Shown piece by piece: positions 46,128 through 60,890 of a stretch of 64,000 nucleotides of DNA. The position numbers and the translations under genes were made by a program. The notes beneath the pieces were generated by a model that made no database searches, had not been told where the DNA came from, and was given only the letters and a program-made list of their open reading frames with translations. This DNA is from Chloropicon primus (lineage: Eukaryota), in contig CP060768.1 in assembly GCA_023205875.1 (NCBI GenBank), positions 124,001 to 188,000 of the forward strand, given 5' to 3'. Every line of letters begins with the position of its first letter. Positions within the stretch are counted from its first letter, which is position 1.

Positions 46128-47759
46128 TCATTGCCAGAGCAAGTACCCAATCTCATCCCACATATCGCAGGCTTCTGTCCTGAAACCGGCGGTGACGTTC
46201 GGCATGGTGTCGGTGAAGTTCATCCACACCCTCGACTGCTGATCGAATTGTGGCCAGGGCACCTGCGACTTGGGCTTCAGGACAGAAGATTCGTCCAAGG
46301 ACTTGGCCGTGACGAAGTCAATCCAGTAGCTTTGCGTGTGCAGGCCCAGCTCCTCGTCCGAACGCGTTCTCTTCAGGTACTTCATCGATGGCTCGGCAAA
46401 GAGGTCAAAGACGAAGGGGAGCTCCACGCCATGGCAAGAGTGACCCTCGCAGCAGAAGGCGTAAGGCCCCCAAAAGTCGCTCGTGTAACCATAACCAAAG
46501 TTGTACGTGAAGGTGGGGAGTCCCTGGGCTCTGAAAGACTTGGCCATAAAACGCGATGGACAGGTGAAGAGGTAATCGGTGGCGAGCTGCTGCAAGGCGA
46601 TCCTGTTGTCCTCGCCGGTGTACTTAGCATACATCTGAGCCACCCGGAACATGTGCGTGCCGAACAAGGCGAACAGGGCAAGGTCGTACGCCTCGTAGTC
46701 CAAAGGGAAACCGACCGCGGCGTAAATGAACGGGCGACCGTCCTCCCTGTTCGAGCCGGTCAGCAATGGAACTTTTGACTGCATCTCGCCATTCTTGTAG
46801 GCAAGGTAAGGGTGGATCGGGATCTCCTCATTGCCGTACGTTGGCATCCACGGCAGCACGTAGTGAATCGGCTGCGGAAGCGGAACGACGACGATGCTCT
46901 CCTGTATATCAACCAACGTTTCCAACTTCTTTGACCTCAGGCACTCGGTCACGTTCTGCGCATCCAGGCACTGAGCATCCTCAATGAACTGCGTGTAGTA
47001 CTTGTTGTCCCTTCCATACTGAATGAAGGGGATGCTCAATGGCCCGCTTTCCACGATAGCCCTGTGAAAGAGTCCCTTGCTCAAAGGAGAAACCAGATGA
47101 GAGATAACCGACATGGCTCCCGCGGACTCCCCTCCCACAGTGACCTGGTCCTTGTTCCCTCCGAACAACTGGATGTTATCTTGCACCCATTGCAGAGCTA
47201 GCCGCTGGTCCTGGAGCCCAAAGTTCCCCTTTATCTCAGTCTTGTGCGTCAGCCAACCCAAAGCACCCAACCTGTAATTCAAGTTCACAAGTATCAAGTC
47301 CCCTGCTCTTGCGAATTGCAAACCATTGTAAGCAACGCAGCCTCCAGCTCCTTCGAAGAATGACCCTCCGTGAATGAAGACGTAGACCGGCCAGCCTCCT
47401 TTGGGTGGAGTCTTGTCTGGGATGTAAACGTTCAAGTACAAGCAATCTTCTGACTGCTTGTCAGGACACATCAAGTCAGGCAACTTGCACATCTGAGGGC
47501 ACCCTGGAGCGAACTCGGTCGCGTTCAGGGTCTCAGTCCAGGGCGTTGGAGGTACTGGCGATGCAAAGCGAAGCTCGTTCACCGGAGGCTGGGCGAACGG
47601 TATCCCAAGAAAGCTCACTGTGCCATTGGCTCTTGAGCCTCTCACCGGTCCAAACTTGGTGATAACAAGAGTATCATCGTGCTTGGCAGCAGCAAAAGTG
47701 GAGAGAGCGGCAAGCAAGATCAAGATGGTGAGGTGTTTGGACCCAACCATGACTGGCAT
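46128..47759 (-). CDS. Secreted type-B carboxylesterase
   Basis: Signal peptide, FLGIPFAQPP, SEDCLYLNV, HGGSF, GESAG nucleophile, CHGVEL. Confidence 0.93.
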   Translation of the reverse strand: MPVMVGSKHLTILILLAALSTFAAAKHDDTLVITKFGPVRGSRANGTVSFLGIPFAQPPVNELRFASPVPPTPWTETLNATEFAPGCPQMCKLPDLMCPDKQSEDCLYLNVYIPDKTPPKGGWPVYVFIHGGSFFEGAGGCVAYNGLQFARAGDLILVNLNYRLGALGWLTHKTEIKGNFGLQDQRLALQWVQDNIQLFGGNKDQVTVGGESAGAMSVISHLVSPLSKGLFHRAIVESGPLSIPFIQYGRDNKYYTQFIEDAQCLDAQNVTECLRSKKLETLVDIQESIVVVPLPQPIHYVLPWMPTYGNEEIPIHPYLAYKNGEMQSKVPLLTGSNREDGRPFIYAAVGFPLDYEAYDLALFALFGTHMFRVAQMYAKYTGEDNRIALQQLATDYLFTCPSRFMAKSFRAQGLPTFTYNFGYGYTSDFWGPYAFCCEGHSCHGVELPFVFDLFAEPSMKYLKRTRSDEELGLHTQSYWIDFVTAKSLDESSVLKPKSQVPWPQFDQQSRVWMNFTDTMPNVTAGFRTEACDMWDEIGYLLWQ

Positions 47760-48129
47760 ACGTCGGGAGTGCCCTCCTTCTTTCCAAGACAAGGCGTTGG
47801 CGGCTGCTGACCTGGCCTTTGAGGCAATGTGGGTTATCGGATTTTTGTCCATGGGATGAATGTACCCGATCACATCAGGCACATCAGGGACAAGATGGAG
47901 GAGGATGGGCCCATCGTGGTGAGAAAGGATGCTCTCCCCCCCCGAACCATTGCTCCCTGCCTGCCTGCCTGTCCCTCTCTCCCTCTCTCTCCCTCTCTCT
48001 CTCTCCCTCTGCTCCCCCAGTCTGTCGAGCAGCGAGAGGGAGGTGTTTTAATATAATATCTAATAACTTTTACACGTTTTGGATGGTTGATGGAGATACA
48101 GAGGGTTGATCCTTGCTCCTCGTCTTTGA

Positions 48130-49776
48130 TCACAAGATGCCAGGCTCACGGTAATAGCCGACACTATCCCAAAAGTCGCACTGATCCTTCTTGAACTCCG
48201 TGATGGTCGCCGGGTGGGCGCTCGAAAAGTTCATCCAGACATCCCCCTGAGCCTGCCCGTATTTTGGCCAAGGGAGCTGGCTCACAGGTTGGTTTGGATC
48301 GCCGCTGAGGATGAAGTTCGACCAGTAAGTATTCATCTTCTTCGCAAGGGTCCTCTCCTCCACAGTTGCGTTCTTGATCGAGTTGATGTTGTTGAAAACG
48401 AACATGAGCTCGCCGCCGTGGCAAGGGTGGTCCGTGCACACTTGACCCCACGTGCCTGGCCCCCAAAACATGCGCGTGGGGTAGCCAAAGTCGTACAAGT
48501 ACGCCCCAATCTTCGAGTAAGCCTCCGACACGAACCTCCCAAGGCACTGGAAGAGGTAATCCGTCACCAGCCTTTCGATGACTGGCCTTTGGTCCCCGTG
48601 GCCCTGAGGAGGATAGTGATACAAGGCCTGCGGGCCCTTGGTGCCGAACAGGGCCAAGACTGCCACGGTGTATTCCGCCCGATTCATCGTGACGTTGTCA
48701 AAGCCAAAGACGAAGACTCTGGCGTCCTCCAAGTTGCCGCCCACCAGGACTGGTATCTGTGAAGTTTGGCCCTTCGACATAGCGAGATAGGGATGCACCG
48801 GCAAGTCCGCCGTCCCTATCGTAGGCGTCCAAGGCATCAAGATGATGTCCGGGTTAGGGAAGGGGAAGATGTCTGCCTGAGTCTTGTCCATGATGCTGAC
48901 AATGTCCTCGGCCGTGATTTTCCTCATGCAGCTCAGGAAGCCCGCGCCGTCCGAGCAGCCACTCTCCGCGACAAACTTGTTGTAGAACCTGTTGTTCTTA
49001 GGCGTAGTAAAAGGCAGCGCAATTGGACTGCTCTCGATAATGGCTTTTGAGAACAAGCCCTGCGAGTGGGGTGCCGCCATGTGACACATCACACTCACAG
49101 CTCCGGCACTCTCTCCGCCCAGAGTTACCCTCGTGTTGTCACCCCCGAAGCTCTCGATGTTGTCGCGCACCCACTGGAGGGACAAGATTTGATCTTGGAA
49201 CCCATAGTTGCCCTCGATGTCGCCGTACTCCAAGAATCCAAACGCTCCCAGCCTATAGTTCATCGTCACCAGGATGATCCCGTTCTCAGCAAACCCAAAG
49301 CCAGCGTACGCCAGCGTGCCGGCTGCCCCGTTCTGAAACGCTCCACCGTGTATGAAGACGTAAACTGGCCAGCCCTCTGCAGGAGGCTCGCTGTCTGGCA
49401 CGAACACATTGAGGTAGAGGCAGTCCTCTGACTGCTTTGGAGGGCACATGATGGGAGGCAGCATGCACGTCTGTGGGCAGCCGGGGCTGAAGTCAGTGGC
49501 ATTCAAGACTTCAGTCCAAGGCTCCATGTTTACTGGTGAACTGAACCGAAGATCTCCTACTGGTGGCTGGGCATAGGGTATTCCCATGAAGCTTACTGTT
49601 CCATTGGTGCGAAAGCCTTGTATTGGGCCATTTGGTGTCTGAACAAGCGTTGGCCTGGACCCACCGTTGGCTCCAACACCCCTCTTGCTCCTATAGTCTC
49701 GAACAGCCTCACAAGTATGGCAGGCCAACACCAAGGCCAAAGCGGCTAGAGCAACAAGCACCCCTCGTCGTGACAT
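48130..49776 (-). CDS. Secreted type-B carboxylesterase (diverged tandem paralogue)
   Basis: Signal peptide, SEDCLYLNV, HGGAF, GESAG, CHGGEL. Confidence 0.93.
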   Translation of the reverse strand: MSRRGVLVALAALALVLACHTCEAVRDYRSKRGVGANGGSRPTLVQTPNGPIQGFRTNGTVSFMGIPYAQPPVGDLRFSSPVNMEPWTEVLNATDFSPGCPQTCMLPPIMCPPKQSEDCLYLNVFVPDSEPPAEGWPVYVFIHGGAFQNGAAGTLAYAGFGFAENGIILVTMNYRLGAFGFLEYGDIEGNYGFQDQILSLQWVRDNIESFGGDNTRVTLGGESAGAVSVMCHMAAPHSQGLFSKAIIESSPIALPFTTPKNNRFYNKFVAESGCSDGAGFLSCMRKITAEDIVSIMDKTQADIFPFPNPDIILMPWTPTIGTADLPVHPYLAMSKGQTSQIPVLVGGNLEDARVFVFGFDNVTMNRAEYTVAVLALFGTKGPQALYHYPPQGHGDQRPVIERLVTDYLFQCLGRFVSEAYSKIGAYLYDFGYPTRMFWGPGTWGQVCTDHPCHGGELMFVFNNINSIKNATVEERTLAKKMNTYWSNFILSGDPNQPVSQLPWPKYGQAQGDVWMNFSSAHPATITEFKKDQCDFWDSVGYYREPGIL

Positions 49777-56789: not shown

Positions 56790-57165
56790 CCATTCGAAGA
56801 CAGTTGGGGTGATCGTTGATGACAGCCCTCAGAACAAGCGTCCACTCATCGTCCCCATCGAGACCGGAGTCGAGCTCAATATTACCGAACTTCAACAGCA
56901 CACGAAGGCAGTCGTAGCTGCAACGGTCCACGCTTTCGTGGGCGGCTTCCAACGCATACGAGACGCCAACCTTGACCATCTTCTCAAGATGGTCGGGCAT
57001 GTCAAACATTGCCAAAATGCGTAAGGACGAATCCCATCCGCCTATGTATGTGCGTGAGCGGGCATCAAATGAGGGTGAGAGAGCGAGTGCGACCCATTCC
57101 TCAAGCAACTCACGAATAACACGCCCCCTCCAGGGCTTCCAAACACCAGAAGAGGGGGGTGTCAT
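56790..57165 (-). pseudogene. Truncated ankyrin-like ORF translationally coupled (ATGA overlap) to the upstream repeat-nuclease gene
   Basis: SYDCLRVLLKFG and TLVLRAVINDHPNCLRM ankyrin-like segments. The ORF then runs into host low-complexity (cct)n sequence. Confidence 0.55.
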
Positions 57166-60100
57166 GCATCAATCATGGCAATCATGGCCTCGTGTTTCCT
57201 TTTCTTGTTCCGCAGCGAAACAAGCAGCTGGTGCGCTGCGCCCTCGTCGCTGCACGCCTTCAGCTTGGCGGCGAGCGTGCCGATCATGTTCATCAACTTC
57301 GCGTTCTCCTTGTTTAACACGGTCCGCAACTCTTTGACGGGATCCAATCCCAGGACCGACAGAGCGTCCCCGCATGCGACTACCGCGTCCACAAACCCAG
57401 GCTTCAACATGCGCGACGCGAAGGCGTTCGAACCCGCTATCAGCACGCCGCCTTTGCCGACCATCTGCTCGAGCTCTTCAAGCACGGCGTAAAGTGCCTC
57501 GGGATCGTCGAACTTCGCCGCAACGCTATTGCAAACAAAGGTCTGGAGATTCTTGATACCGAAGCGCGTCCTCAGCGTGTCGAGCACGGCGTAGAGCGCG
57601 TCGGGATCGTCGAACTTCGCCGCAACGCTGTTATTCACAAAGGTGATACCGAAGCGCGTCCTCAAAGTGTCCAGCACGGCGTAGAGCGCTGCGGGATCGT
57701 CAAACCTCGCCGCAACGCCTCCTGAAACAAAGGTTTGGAGACTCTTGATGCCAAAGCGCGTCCTCAAAGTGTCCAGCACGGCGTAGAGCGCTGCGGGATC
57801 GTCAAACCTCGCCGCAACGCTGTCTGAAACAAAGGTTTGGAGACTCTTGATGCCGAAGCGCGTCCTCAAAGTGTCGAGCACGGCGTAGAGCGCGTCGGGA
57901 TCGTCAAACCTCGCCGCAACGCCTCCTGAAACAAAGGTTTGGAGACTCTTGATGCCAAAGCGCGTCCTCAAAGTGTCCAGCACGGCGTAGAGCGCGTCGG
58001 GATCGTCAAACCTCGCCGCAACGCTGTCTGAAACAAAGGTCTGGAGACTCTTGATGCCGAAGCGCGTCCTCAAAGTGTCGAGCACGGCGTAGAGCGCTGC
58101 GGGATCGTCAAACCTCGCCGCAACGCTGTCTGAAACAAAGGTCTGGAGACTCTTGATACCGAAGCGCGTCCTCAAAGTGTCGAGCACGGCGTAGAGCGCG
58201 TCGGGATCGTCAAACTTCGCCGCAACGCCATCACAAACGAAGGTCTGGAGACTCTTGATACCGAAGCGCGTCCTCAGCGTGTCGAGCACGGCGTAGAGCG
58301 CGTCGGGATCGTCAAACTTTGCCGCAACGCCACCACAAACGAAGGTCTGGAGACTCTTGATACCGAAGCGCGTCCTCAGCGTGTCGAGCACGGCGTAGAG
58401 CGCGTCGGGATCGTCAGACCTCGCCGCAACGCCACCACAAACGAAGGTCTGGAGACTCTTGATACCGAAGCGCGTCCTCAGCGTGTCGAGCACGGCGTAG
58501 AGCGCGTCGGGATCGTCAAACCTCGCCGCAACGCCACCACAAACGAAGGTCTGGAGACTCTTGATACCGAAGCGCGTCCTCAGCGTGTCGAGCACGGCGT
58601 AGAGCGCGTCGGGATCGTCAAACTTCGCCGCAACGCCATCACAAACGAAGGTCTGGAGACTCTTGATACCGAAGCGCGTCCTCAGCGTGTCGAGCACGGC
58701 GTAGAGCGCGTCGGGATCGTCAAACTTCGCCGCAACGCCATCACAAACGAAGGTCTGGAGACTCTTGATGCCGAAGCGCGTCCTCAAAGTGTTGAGCACG
58801 GCGTAGAGCGCGTCGGGATCGTCAAACTTCGCCGCAACGCTGTCACAAACGAAGGTCTGGAGACTCTTGATGCCGAAGCGCGTCCTCAGCGTGTCGAGCA
58901 CGGCGTAGAGCGCGTCGGGATCGTCAAACTTCGCCGCAACGCCATCACAAACGAAGGTCTGGAGACTCTTGATACCGAAGCGCGTCCTCAGCGTGTCGAG
59001 CACGGCGTAGAGCGCGTCGGGATCGTCAAACTTCGCCGCAACGCCTCCTGAAACAAAGGTTTGGAGACTCTTGATGCCGAAGCGCGTCCTCAAAGTGTCG
59101 AGCACGGCGTAGAGCGCTGCGGGATCGTCAAACCTCGCCGCAACGCTGTCTGAAACAAAGGTTTGGAGACTCTTGATGCCGAAGCGCGTCCTCAAAGTGT
59201 CGAGCACGGCGTAGAGCGCTGCGGGATCGTCAAACCTCGCCGCAACGCTGTCTGAAACAAAGGTTTGGAGACTCTTGATGCCGAAGCGCGTCCTCAAAGT
59301 GTCGAGCACGGCGTAGAGCGCTGCGGGATCGTCAAACCTCGCCGCAACGCTGTCTGAAACAAAGGTTTGGAGACTCTTGATGCCGAAGCGCGTCCTCAAA
59401 GTGTCGAGCACGGCGTAGAGCGCTGCGGGATCGTCAAACCTCGCCGCAACGCTGTCTGAAACAAAGGTTTGGAGACTCTTGATGCCGAAGCGCGTCCTCA
59501 AAGTGTCGAGCACGGCGTAGAGCGCGTCGGGATCGTCAAACCTCGCCGCAACGCTGTCTGAAACAAAGGTCTGGAGACTCTTGATGCCGAAGCGCGTCTT
59601 GAGCGCCGTGAGGATGTCAAAGAGTTTCTCCGGATCGTCGAACTTTGCAGCGACGCCGCCGCAGACAAACGTGCCCAAGTTGGTTATGCCGAACTTGGGA
59701 TCTTGCAACCCTTTGATGCTTTTCTCGAAGGCTCCCGTCAGGACACGCGAAGGCACTCCGGGGGTGGCCATGAGCTTTCGCGCCAGGTCGAGATCACCAC
59801 CCACGAGCGTCGCGACGCGCTGCTCGGCGGCTTCAAACTCCTTGCTCATGCGCGCCCACACGTCCGCGGCGGCATCGTTGGCGGCGGCGTTGTCATGGTT
59901 GCTGCTCGGGCACGCCTTGGTCGCTGCAGCACCGCCTTGATGGATGCGCTGCGCGACGGCGGTCACAGCAGCTGACGCGGCAACGTTCGGTAATTGCGAC
60001 TCGGTGACGACGACGAGCACGTTGTCCCCCCACTGCGAAAGCTGCTCGAAGTGTGCGGCGCCCACGCGCAAGCGGACCACGAACGCGTCAGGGAACATTT

Positions 60101-60446
60101 CGCGGAGCTTGGTCGTCTTGCGTTGGTCGCGTCCCACGTCGGAGTCGCCGTGCGTGAAGCCCGGGTCGTACTCGAACAGCACTTCCGTGCCATTCGTGAG
60201 CTTGAAGAACGCATCGGTGTTGTGGTGGGTCTTGCCTTCCGTCAGGTGCTTCGCGAGCGAGCGCCCGGTCACGCCCTGCTCAAGCAAGCCGTTCTCAAAC
60301 AACAGCTGCGCCACATGCGCGACGTGACGTGTCTCGGCCTTGGACGCGCCGATCGGAGACGGCACGTCGTAGTCGTCGACACGGCGGCGTTTGCTCGGCG
60401 GCGCGTCCGACGCCATGACGCGCACCTCGAACGCGACCCTTTCCAT
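57162..60446 (-). CDS. TALE-like 34-aa tandem-repeat protein with N-terminal Vsr/DUF559-like endonuclease domain and NLS motifs
   Basis: Intronless 1094-aa ORF: PPSKRRRV; SKAE...TDAFF...VLFEYDPGFTHG...RDQRK...VVRLR; 22 repeats of FGIKSLQTFV[xxx]VAA(R/K)FDDP(D/A)ALYAVLDTLRTR; C-terminal KKRK. Confidence 0.85.
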   Translation of the reverse strand: MERVAFEVRVMASDAPPSKRRRVDDYDVPSPIGASKAETRHVAHVAQLLFENGLLEQGVTGRSLAKHLTEGKTHHNTDAFFKLTNGTEVLFEYDPGFTHGDSDVGRDQRKTTKLREMFPDAFVVRLRVGAAHFEQLSQWGDNVLVVVTESQLPNVAASAAVTAVAQRIHQGGAAATKACPSSNHDNAAANDAAADVWARMSKEFEAAEQRVATLVGGDLDLARKLMATPGVPSRVLTGAFEKSIKGLQDPKFGITNLGTFVCGGVAAKFDDPEKLFDILTALKTRFGIKSLQTFVSDSVAARFDDPDALYAVLDTLRTRFGIKSLQTFVSDSVAARFDDPAALYAVLDTLRTRFGIKSLQTFVSDSVAARFDDPAALYAVLDTLRTRFGIKSLQTFVSDSVAARFDDPAALYAVLDTLRTRFGIKSLQTFVSDSVAARFDDPAALYAVLDTLRTRFGIKSLQTFVSGGVAAKFDDPDALYAVLDTLRTRFGIKSLQTFVCDGVAAKFDDPDALYAVLDTLRTRFGIKSLQTFVCDSVAAKFDDPDALYAVLNTLRTRFGIKSLQTFVCDGVAAKFDDPDALYAVLDTLRTRFGIKSLQTFVCDGVAAKFDDPDALYAVLDTLRTRFGIKSLQTFVCGGVAARFDDPDALYAVLDTLRTRFGIKSLQTFVCGGVAARSDDPDALYAVLDTLRTRFGIKSLQTFVCGGVAAKFDDPDALYAVLDTLRTRFGIKSLQTFVCDGVAAKFDDPDALYAVLDTLRTRFGIKSLQTFVSDSVAARFDDPAALYAVLDTLRTRFGIKSLQTFVSDSVAARFDDPDALYAVLDTLRTRFGIKSLQTFVSGGVAARFDDPDALYAVLDTLRTRFGIKSLQTFVSDSVAARFDDPAALYAVLDTLRTRFGIKSLQTFVSGGVAARFDDPAALYAVLDTLRTRFGITFVNNSVAAKFDDPDALYAVLDTLRTRFGIKNLQTFVCNSVAAKFDDPEALYAVLEELEQMVGKGGVLIAGSNAFASRMLKPGFVDAVVACGDALSVLGLDPVKELRTVLNKENAKLMNMIGTLAAKLKACSDEGAAHQLLVSLRNKKRKHEAMIAMIDA
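57480..59693 (-). repeat. Coding tandem array of 22 x 102-bp units (one 90-bp unit)
   Basis: Period of 102 bp checked (gatcgtcaaa at 59429 and 59531); the unit near 57627 lacks KSLQ (12 bp). Confidence 0.97.
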
Positions 60447-60890
60447 ATGAATTATGAATTAATTTCCAGCTCACCTTAACATTCAATACGTAACGTCCCC
60501 GCTGTCCACGCAAAACAGAAACAACCTACTCGCGGGGGGAACCTCCTTCTTCTTCGCGACGGACGACGGAGGGAGGCAGAGGGAGGGAGGGAGGGCGGTG
60601 AAAAACGAAACCTTGTCTCTTGCTCTTTCGATTGATACCTCGGTCGACAGGTTTGGCGTCCGGAGTCGTTCGCGGGAGCTGGCCAAGGAAGATATTTTCT
60701 TAGGCTTGAGCTTGGAAGGCCTACCTCCGCTCGAGAGGGTCAGGGGCGTCGCGACTCGCGAGGCTTAAGGGCTTCCTTCAGTCGGCGGGCCACGAAGGGT
60801 TCGCTCGCTTGCCCTCTGCAGGTCCCGCGGCCACCTTGCCGGGCGCGACGGGGGACGACGACGGGTGAACCTTGGACGGAGAGAGAGAGG

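Follow-up and report, generated by a model that had tools for sequence, protein, structure and literature searches.

We describe a gene in a 64,000-nucleotide window of Chloropicon primus (contig CP060768.1, positions 124,001 to 188,000) that may encode a natural counterpart of the engineered TALENs (transcription activator-like effector nucleases). The gene is an uninterrupted open reading frame (ORF) of 1094 amino acids (aa) at positions 57162-60446 of the window, on the reverse strand, in which a nuclease-like domain precedes 22 helical repeats. Judged from the sequence and from structural models, we cautiously favour the view that the product is a mobile, nuclear, repeat-programmed and site-specific endonuclease. 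The parts of this proposal are not equally secure: the repeat array very likely binds DNA, the head is likely an active nuclease of the Vsr/EDxHD type, each repeat probably reads one base, and selfish mobility by break repair seems somewhat favoured. A preliminary description of this DNA had noted a single intact frame, the motif PPSKRRRV, 22 repeats, the degenerate repeat IAGSNAFASR and a terminal KKRK, and all of these are present in the translation and in the unit spacing.

To characterise the N-terminal part, we used an AlphaFold2 model of residues 11-489, which has a pLDDT (score of the predicted local distance difference test) of 92.1 and a predicted TM-score of 0.84. Model residues 18-162 resemble the PD-(D/E)XK enzymes Can2, Bax1, Card1, Vsr, NGO0050 and I-Bth0305I with middling, consistent Z-scores of 5.8-8.1; the value is 5.9 for Vsr and 5.8 for the catalytic domain of I-Bth0305I. 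Six residues (D78, D94, H99, D107, K110 and R127) are invariant in all 69 aligned relatives, and E38 is kept in 58 of the 69, with 10 gaps. The spacing of D78, H99 and D107 (21 and 8 residues) resembles that of D196, H213 and D222 in I-Bth0305I (17 and 9), as given in the accessible text of PMC3239194. By motif spacing, not by superposition, these three would be the metal-binding aspartate, the general-base histidine and the nearby aspartate. The conserved residues and the model matches bear out the nuclease identity proposed in the preliminary description, while the domain is larger than the approximately 95 aa given there, as the fold covers about aa 28-172. A search of the N-terminus against the Atlas returned only leads, at 0.79-0.80 (DUF559, PvuRts1I).

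The array consists of 22 units anchored by FGI (aa 252-995), spaced by 34 aa in 20 of 21 intervals and by 30 aa in the other one. The loop triplet is SDS in eight units, CGG in four, CDG in four and SGG in three, while CDS, NNS and CNS occur once each. The earlier statement that the variation of the near-identical repeats is concentrated in one short loop is borne out, with a correction for positions outside it: among 19 core units the changes fall on loop positions 11-13, on the dimorphic positions 17 (R/K, 12:7) and 22 (D/A, 12:7), and on two singletons. The units differ at both synonymous and non-synonymous sites.

The same focus is found across the family. In 473 motif matches the central loop residue is D in 155, N in 147, G in 142 and S in 19 (the search pattern allowed eight residues there, and most arrays were without missing units). 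This residue varies within all 21 distinct scaffolds, with a mean of 0.43 of the units differing, compared with 0.21-0.22 for its loop neighbours and at most 0.15 for other positions. The scaffolds diverge widely, the repeat period ranging from 33 to 38 aa across the family. In TALEs the base-specifying residues are D for C, N for G or A, G for T, and S for any base or A. Members from Emiliania huxleyi viruses (EhV) carry ND, NN, NG, DG and DD pairs in the loop. The flanking loop residues are coupled, with 183 cases of C..G against 70 of C..S, and 57 of S..S against 20 of S..G. Repeat number and order vary between relatives, as had been anticipated: proteins of the EhV cluster vary in length by multiples of 33 aa and also in the order of their loops, and loop order likewise separates two Tribonema paralogues of the same length. 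Five further proteins (P0105, P0126, P0127, P0129, P0163) have repeats of 35-37 aa with the loop G-[D/N/G]-[S/C]-F-W/Y, the small alphabet again but on a different scaffold.

A model of ten repeats (pLDDT 89.2) has three helical segments per repeat, and the array is predicted to fold as a superhelix of the TALE/mTERF type. Foldseek gives 25 matches at E<=0.001; of these, all that are listed are TALE-type chains, and mTERF1 comes later, at rank 44. A wide structure search over 48,161 chains places none but mTERF-type and TALE/Bat chains in the first 12 ranks (Z 8.7-13.7), and the next match has a Z-score of 5.8. Repeat for repeat, 340 residues of the model cover 340 residues of a TALE.

Some family members are homologous to TAL effectors by direct alignment. 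Against a TALE, 4 of 203 family proteins score at least 45 bits, compared with none against a reversed TALE and 1 of 203 against mTERF arrays. The protein P0063 matches 46 of 72,556 plasmids (30 from Xanthomonas, 8 from Ralstonia, 7 from Mycetohabitans, 1 from Cupriavidus; the best 20 of the 46 listed), with a best E-value of 1e-10. Two short-loop proteins of the nine tested, P0052 and P0071, match the NCBIfam AvrBs3 model at 1.3e-10 and 4.3e-7, far below its cut-off. The variable D/N/E/S residue falls on TALE position 13 at four of seven aligned sites in P0063 and at five of five in P0106. The published TALE-like motif X6VX6GX13L, i.e. V7, G14 and L29 according to the accessible text of PMC4787788, occurs in two units of P0063 and three of P0204.

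Two word searches found 7 and 14 relatives, and searching with a profile built from 13 sequences gave 331 clusters (50% identity) at E<=0.001 (the best 150 of the 331 listed), 170 at 1e-10 and 54 at 1e-30. By these sequence searches the family is large, and it is without a name in Pfam. The nuclease domain is carried by 112 of 183 proteins, as detected with our own hidden Markov model (HMM) built partly from the same set. Most of the 30 relatives looked up come from metagenome assemblies; the named members are from Emiliania huxleyi viruses 18, 84, 145, 156, 164, 202 and M1, a Megaviridae environmental sample, and Tribonema minus (three proteins). One EukProt gene model shares 90% identity with the window protein. 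The survey of paralogues and viruses suggested earlier thus yields a multi-copy gene and a large family with EhV and Megaviridae members, and the gene is no longer an oddity of one algal genome, the family being shared with giant viruses. The EukProt model, P0002, joins an amine oxidase to its copy of the gene, and also contains a segment that we take to be protease-like from its motif; it is probably a fused gene model and possibly includes the neighbours of another copy.

A FastTree phylogeny built on 109 distinct nuclease segments groups the window protein with the EukProt model and proteins from metagenomes (support 0.99); because the EhV clades are separate and the deep nodes weak, we name no donor. 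NLS-like (nuclear localisation signal) motifs are found at an end of 39 of 75 nuclease-bearing relatives, compared with a mean of 11.4 and a maximum of 21 in 500 shuffles, in agreement with the nuclear targeting first suggested for the window protein. A giant-virus metagenome-assembled genome holds a frameshifted copy of the nuclease, the only locus found by six scans of viral contigs. A metagenome scan gave two short loci only and a phage search no match. A prokaryote scan with one nuclease motif, weak as evidence of absence, found six loci with a related nuclease core and without the repeats. The bacterial proteins L007-L012 have such a related core and lack TALE-like repeats, and five of the six carry CxxC motifs. 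DUF4113, YAcAr and other whole-protein matches in Pfam, NCBIfam and PHROG were rejected, being sums over repeats with no single passing stretch.

The heads of the family are modular. The same repeats stand behind a different N-terminal head in at least a dozen proteins. A head resembling uracil-DNA glycosylase (UDG) is seen in P0058, P0203, P0080 (Tribonema minus), P0008, P0081, P0095, P0115, P0118, P0123, P0131, P0132, P0142, P0160 and P0178. The Atlas places the head of P0081 near the uracil-DNA glycosylase superfamily at 0.89-0.90, which is a lead only, and a sequence search of the PDB with this head has no match; the assignment also leans on sequence motifs of the head. These proteins are candidate natural TALE-guided glycosylases, and a UDG-like member from Tribonema has the accession KAG5184175.1. 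In P0180 and P0183, the same nuclease head is joined to true mTERF repeats (Pfam mTERF, E 7e-29 and 1.5e-26). The repeats of P0119 and P0173 follow a more divergent nuclease head, which suggests a further head swap, and in P0071, P0079 and P0138 they are preceded by N-terminal regions of no identified family.

According to the mechanism that we propose, the 22 repeats would wrap the DNA and read about one base each, defining a long target site, and the Vsr/EDxHD-type head would cut beside this site, on its N-terminal side. It could nick as a monomer or make a double-strand break as a dimer. Repair of the break would copy the gene into the cut site, allowing a selfish spread among giant viruses and algal genomes, and the enzyme would acquire new targets as near-identical repeats are gained, lost or shuffled. 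A broader idea, which we regard as possible rather than probable, is that a large natural toolkit of TALE-related enzymes is distributed over giant viruses and algae: repeat-programmed nucleases and UDG-like glycosylases, the latter as targeted modifiers of bases, that act on DNA, serve in conflicts between viruses and between virus and host, and are retargeted by repeat shuffling. Such a toolkit would bridge TALE and mTERF and point to the origin of TAL effectors.

Several observations weigh against a TALEN-like protein, and they concern the fold, the sequence, the target and the genomic copies. By fold, mTERF1 (Z 13.7, root-mean-square deviation (rmsd) 5.1, 299 residues aligned) ties with TALE (Z 13.0, rmsd 5.6, 305 residues aligned); Foldseek favours TALE. 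In a second structure comparison mTERF1 has a Z-score of 14.1 and TALE 13.0, and the rmsd to DNA-bound TALEs is 8-9 Å. The earlier assignment to TALE-type repeats is supported as far as a superhelix of the TALE/mTERF type is predicted and some relatives are homologous to TALEs, with mTERF an equal match by fold. By sequence, neither the window protein nor its repeats match a TALE or Bat, including a phmmer search against PDB sequences (0 matches), and the protein matches neither PF03377/AvrBs3 nor Pfam mTERF (PF02536). The likeness to the second helix of Bat repeats that had been suggested was not reproduced. A single-unit HMM scores neither family, with at best -2.4 bits for TALE and 1.4 bits for mTERF. 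The family profile has 10 matches in the PDB, with three TALEs on top (E 2.7e-11, 1.3e-5 and 1e-3), a score that is a sum over repeats in which each stretch has E>=1.5; the profile of a second, poorer family alignment finds no TALE in the PDB. No window repeat contains X6VX6GX13L. Because the window repeats fail in the TALE searches, the single-unit HMM and the motif, the TALE link is transitive and runs through the family. The loop in the window's subfamily is shorter than the TALE loop, and for this reason the register of position 13 is ambiguous there. Finally, differences in repeat number among metagenome assemblies may be collapse artefacts. By the published motif the protein is not a TALE-like member, though it most likely works like a TALEN.

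Read with the TALE code, the window array gives TCCCCCTCCCCTTTCCCTCTRR. The best site for it in the 64-kb window agrees at 17 of 22 positions, a score matched by 255 of 300 shuffled repeat orders, so that no target was found. A site beside the left boundary agrees at 16 of 22 positions, which 69 of 300 shuffled orders reach. Searches of the window with the TALE code or with free base assignment returned low-complexity tracts only.

The read depth in DNA run X1 is 440 over positions 56792-57527 and 372 over 59569-60435, compared with 106 and 118 in the flanking contigs; this suggests about 3-4 gene copies in the genome, with the reservation that contig depth does not equal true copy number. Beyond position 60435 a further contig, ascribed to another copy or copies, runs on in different sequence (runs X1, X2 and X6), and the right junction sits on a single-depth DNA contig. 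Runs X2, X6 and X7 behave as RNA because an intron of the neighbouring gene is skipped, and they include contigs over the ORF. The 5' RNA contigs (X2, X6) continue into the upstream sequence of another copy, so the transcripts are not assignable to the window copy. No read contig spans the array, and its repeat number and order in this copy are therefore without independent confirmation. At the boundaries neither terminal repeats nor a target duplication nor poly(A) is seen, and the window holds no second copy. With regard to homing, the multi-copy signal and the junction are present and no empty allele was seen. The ratio of observed to expected CpG is 1.35-1.44 in the ORF and 0.73-0.99 in nine host ORFs, so that the composition of the gene looks foreign. 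At positions 60625-60658, upstream of the RINGv gene, three loose ends in run X1 suggest a short sequence common to other loci.

The tie in fold raises the alternative of a site-specific mobile nuclease whose array acts like mTERF1, wrapping DNA through scattered contacts, with the loop variation tuning geometry or affinity and no one-base code. The top Z-score, the three helical segments per repeat in the model, the use of the same nuclease on true mTERF repeats in P0180 and P0183 and the coupled flanking residues all agree with it. We consider it rather unlikely, as the variation is focused on one position with a TALE-like alphabet, mTERF1 is only at rank 44 in Foldseek, one protein in 203 scores against mTERF arrays compared with four against a TALE, and mTERF is not among the 25 Pfam families listed for the 75 members aligned. 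Action on RNA, as in algal proteins with a RAP domain and helical repeats, is suggested by RAP-type chains among the fold matches of the nuclease (FASTKD4, Z 6.5) and by several mitoribosome proteins among the mTERF-fold matches. The enrichment of NLS-like motifs, the sequence link to DNA-binding TALEs and the resemblance of the alternative head to a DNA glycosylase make this highly improbable.

Two other explanations concern the role and state of the gene in the alga. A nuclease domesticated for defence, cutting incoming DNA of giant viruses or virophages, would fit the intact ORF and catalytic residues, the NLS-like motifs, the several copies and the transcripts of the family, as well as the absence of a self target in the window and the diversifying arrays of closer relatives. 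It appears improbable given that viruses encode the family too and that the foreign composition indicates a recent arrival; moreover, the self-target search covered only 64 kb of the host genome. Alternatively, the window copy could be what is left, in inert form, of a gene that was once viral, or its array could have been inflated by the assembly. The array is unspanned by contigs, the 5' RNA contigs belong to another copy, and P0009, the nearest complete relative, has two repeats only. To this explanation we give very little weight, as the frame is open over 3.3 kb with an intact catalytic set, both synonymous and non-synonymous differences separate the units and a DNA contig of single depth carries the right junction; the family result is independent of this copy.

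Among known systems, the favoured natural TALEN has an artificial counterpart. Engineered TALENs are fusions of TALE and FokI; like the window protein they carry a repeat array and a PD-(D/E)XK-fold nuclease on one chain, with FokI at the C-terminus, whereas the nuclease here is natural, N-terminal and Vsr-like. With TAL effectors and TALE-likes (Xanthomonas TALE, RipTAL, Bat/BurrH, MOrTL, STAR; PDB 3UGM, 4CJ9, 4HPZ; accessible text of PMC4787788 and PMC11417379) the family shares near-identical repeats of 33-38 aa, a predicted superhelix in 1:1 register, one hypervariable D/N/G/S loop residue, a degenerate terminal repeat and NLS-like motifs. It differs from them in its enzymatic N-terminal head (a nuclease, or UDG-like in sister proteins), in its hosts, which are giant viruses and algae and not bacteria, in G14 being often S or C, in the lack of any NI-type loop among those seen, and in the shorter loop of the window's subfamily. 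I-Bth0305I (PDB 3R3P) and the EDxHD homing endonucleases, as far as described in the accessible text of PMC3239194 and PMC3384342, resemble the enzyme proposed here in their Vsr-like catalytic domain with conserved Asp, His and Asp, their separate DNA-binding arm and their mobile gene. Their arm consists of N-terminal NUMOD motifs and their genes lie in phage introns or inteins or are free-standing, whereas here the nuclease comes first and the arm is TALE-related. The mTERF/pTERF proteins (PF02536; PDB 3N6S, 3MVA; accessible text of PMC11417379) share the superhelix of three-segment helical repeats predicted for the array and have the top Z-scores, while the window repeats differ in having no mTERF Pfam match or proline motif, variation within a TALE-position loop and a nuclease head.

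In the accessible literature, the TALE-likes described act as binders or as effectors of transcription and come almost entirely from bacteria; none carries an enzyme and none is viral. The accessible text of PMC11417379 gives no nuclease for STAR, MOON or pTERF, including a STAR assigned to fungi, and that of PMC5472282, PMC12482156 and PMC6813540 contains no word beginning with "nuclease". We found no publication that describes a TALE-nuclease fusion in nature or TALE-like proteins from viruses or algae, in a search that had most subscription journals outside its reach. Within the literature searched, the family in which giant viruses and algae combine TALE-related arrays with DNA enzymes has not been described before; both building blocks were already known separately, and the combination is what is new. 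If the proposal is true, evolution has built the engineers' design, and hundreds of sequence-diverse repeat scaffolds, a compact nuclease head and a glycosylase-like head would be available for editing. The origin of the TALE repeat and its relation to mTERF would become directly testable, and a mechanism of genome conflict would be added to bloom-ending viruses such as EhV.

The features of the locus are collected in Table 1. The real start of the protein is probably Met11 rather than the first ATG, because the multi-copy segment does not reach the first ATG and P0009, the closest complete relative, begins at the equivalent of Met11. The 148-aa ORF that follows the gene has no match in Pfam or PHROG searches and may be non-coding 3' sequence. 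As an Rfam search near the gene has no match and the 3' region folds at a z of only -1.76, we propose no guide RNA.

Table 1. Features of the gene and its surroundings, in window coordinates.
Feature	Position	Strand	Remark
Whole ORF	57162..60446	-	1094 aa; probable real start Met11 at 60416, giving 1084 aa
NLS-like PPSKRRRV, aa 16-23	60378..60401	-	sequence
Vsr/EDxHD-like PD-(D/E)XK nuclease domain (predicted), about aa 28-172	59931..60365	-	model and conservation
Nuclease residues noted			E38, D78, E92, D94, H99, D107, K110, R125, R127
Helical linker and cryptic pre-repeat region, aa 173-251	59694..59930	-	helices of the model; TALE/mTERF fold alignments begin here
22 helical repeats, all of 34 aa except one of 30 aa	57462..59693	-	loop F-V-[S/C/N]-[D/G/N]-[S/G]-V
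C-terminal cap: degenerate repeat IAGSNAFASR and KKRK (57195-57206; aa 1081-1084)	57165..57461	-	common to closest relatives
Segment common to other genomic copies	56792..60435	.	read depth; loose end
Second ORF, 148 aa	56719..57165	-	ATG overlaps the main stop codon; boundary 56792 cuts through this ORF

The genes around the main ORF (AP2, chlorophyll a/b-binding, Sec16, BFN and RINGv) are typical of a photosynthetic eukaryote, and because these neighbours are ordinary genes of such organisms we take the setting to be a nuclear chromosome of a green alga. Elsewhere in the window, carboxylesterase genes lie side by side on the reverse strand at positions 46128-49776, forming an ordinary tandem pair.

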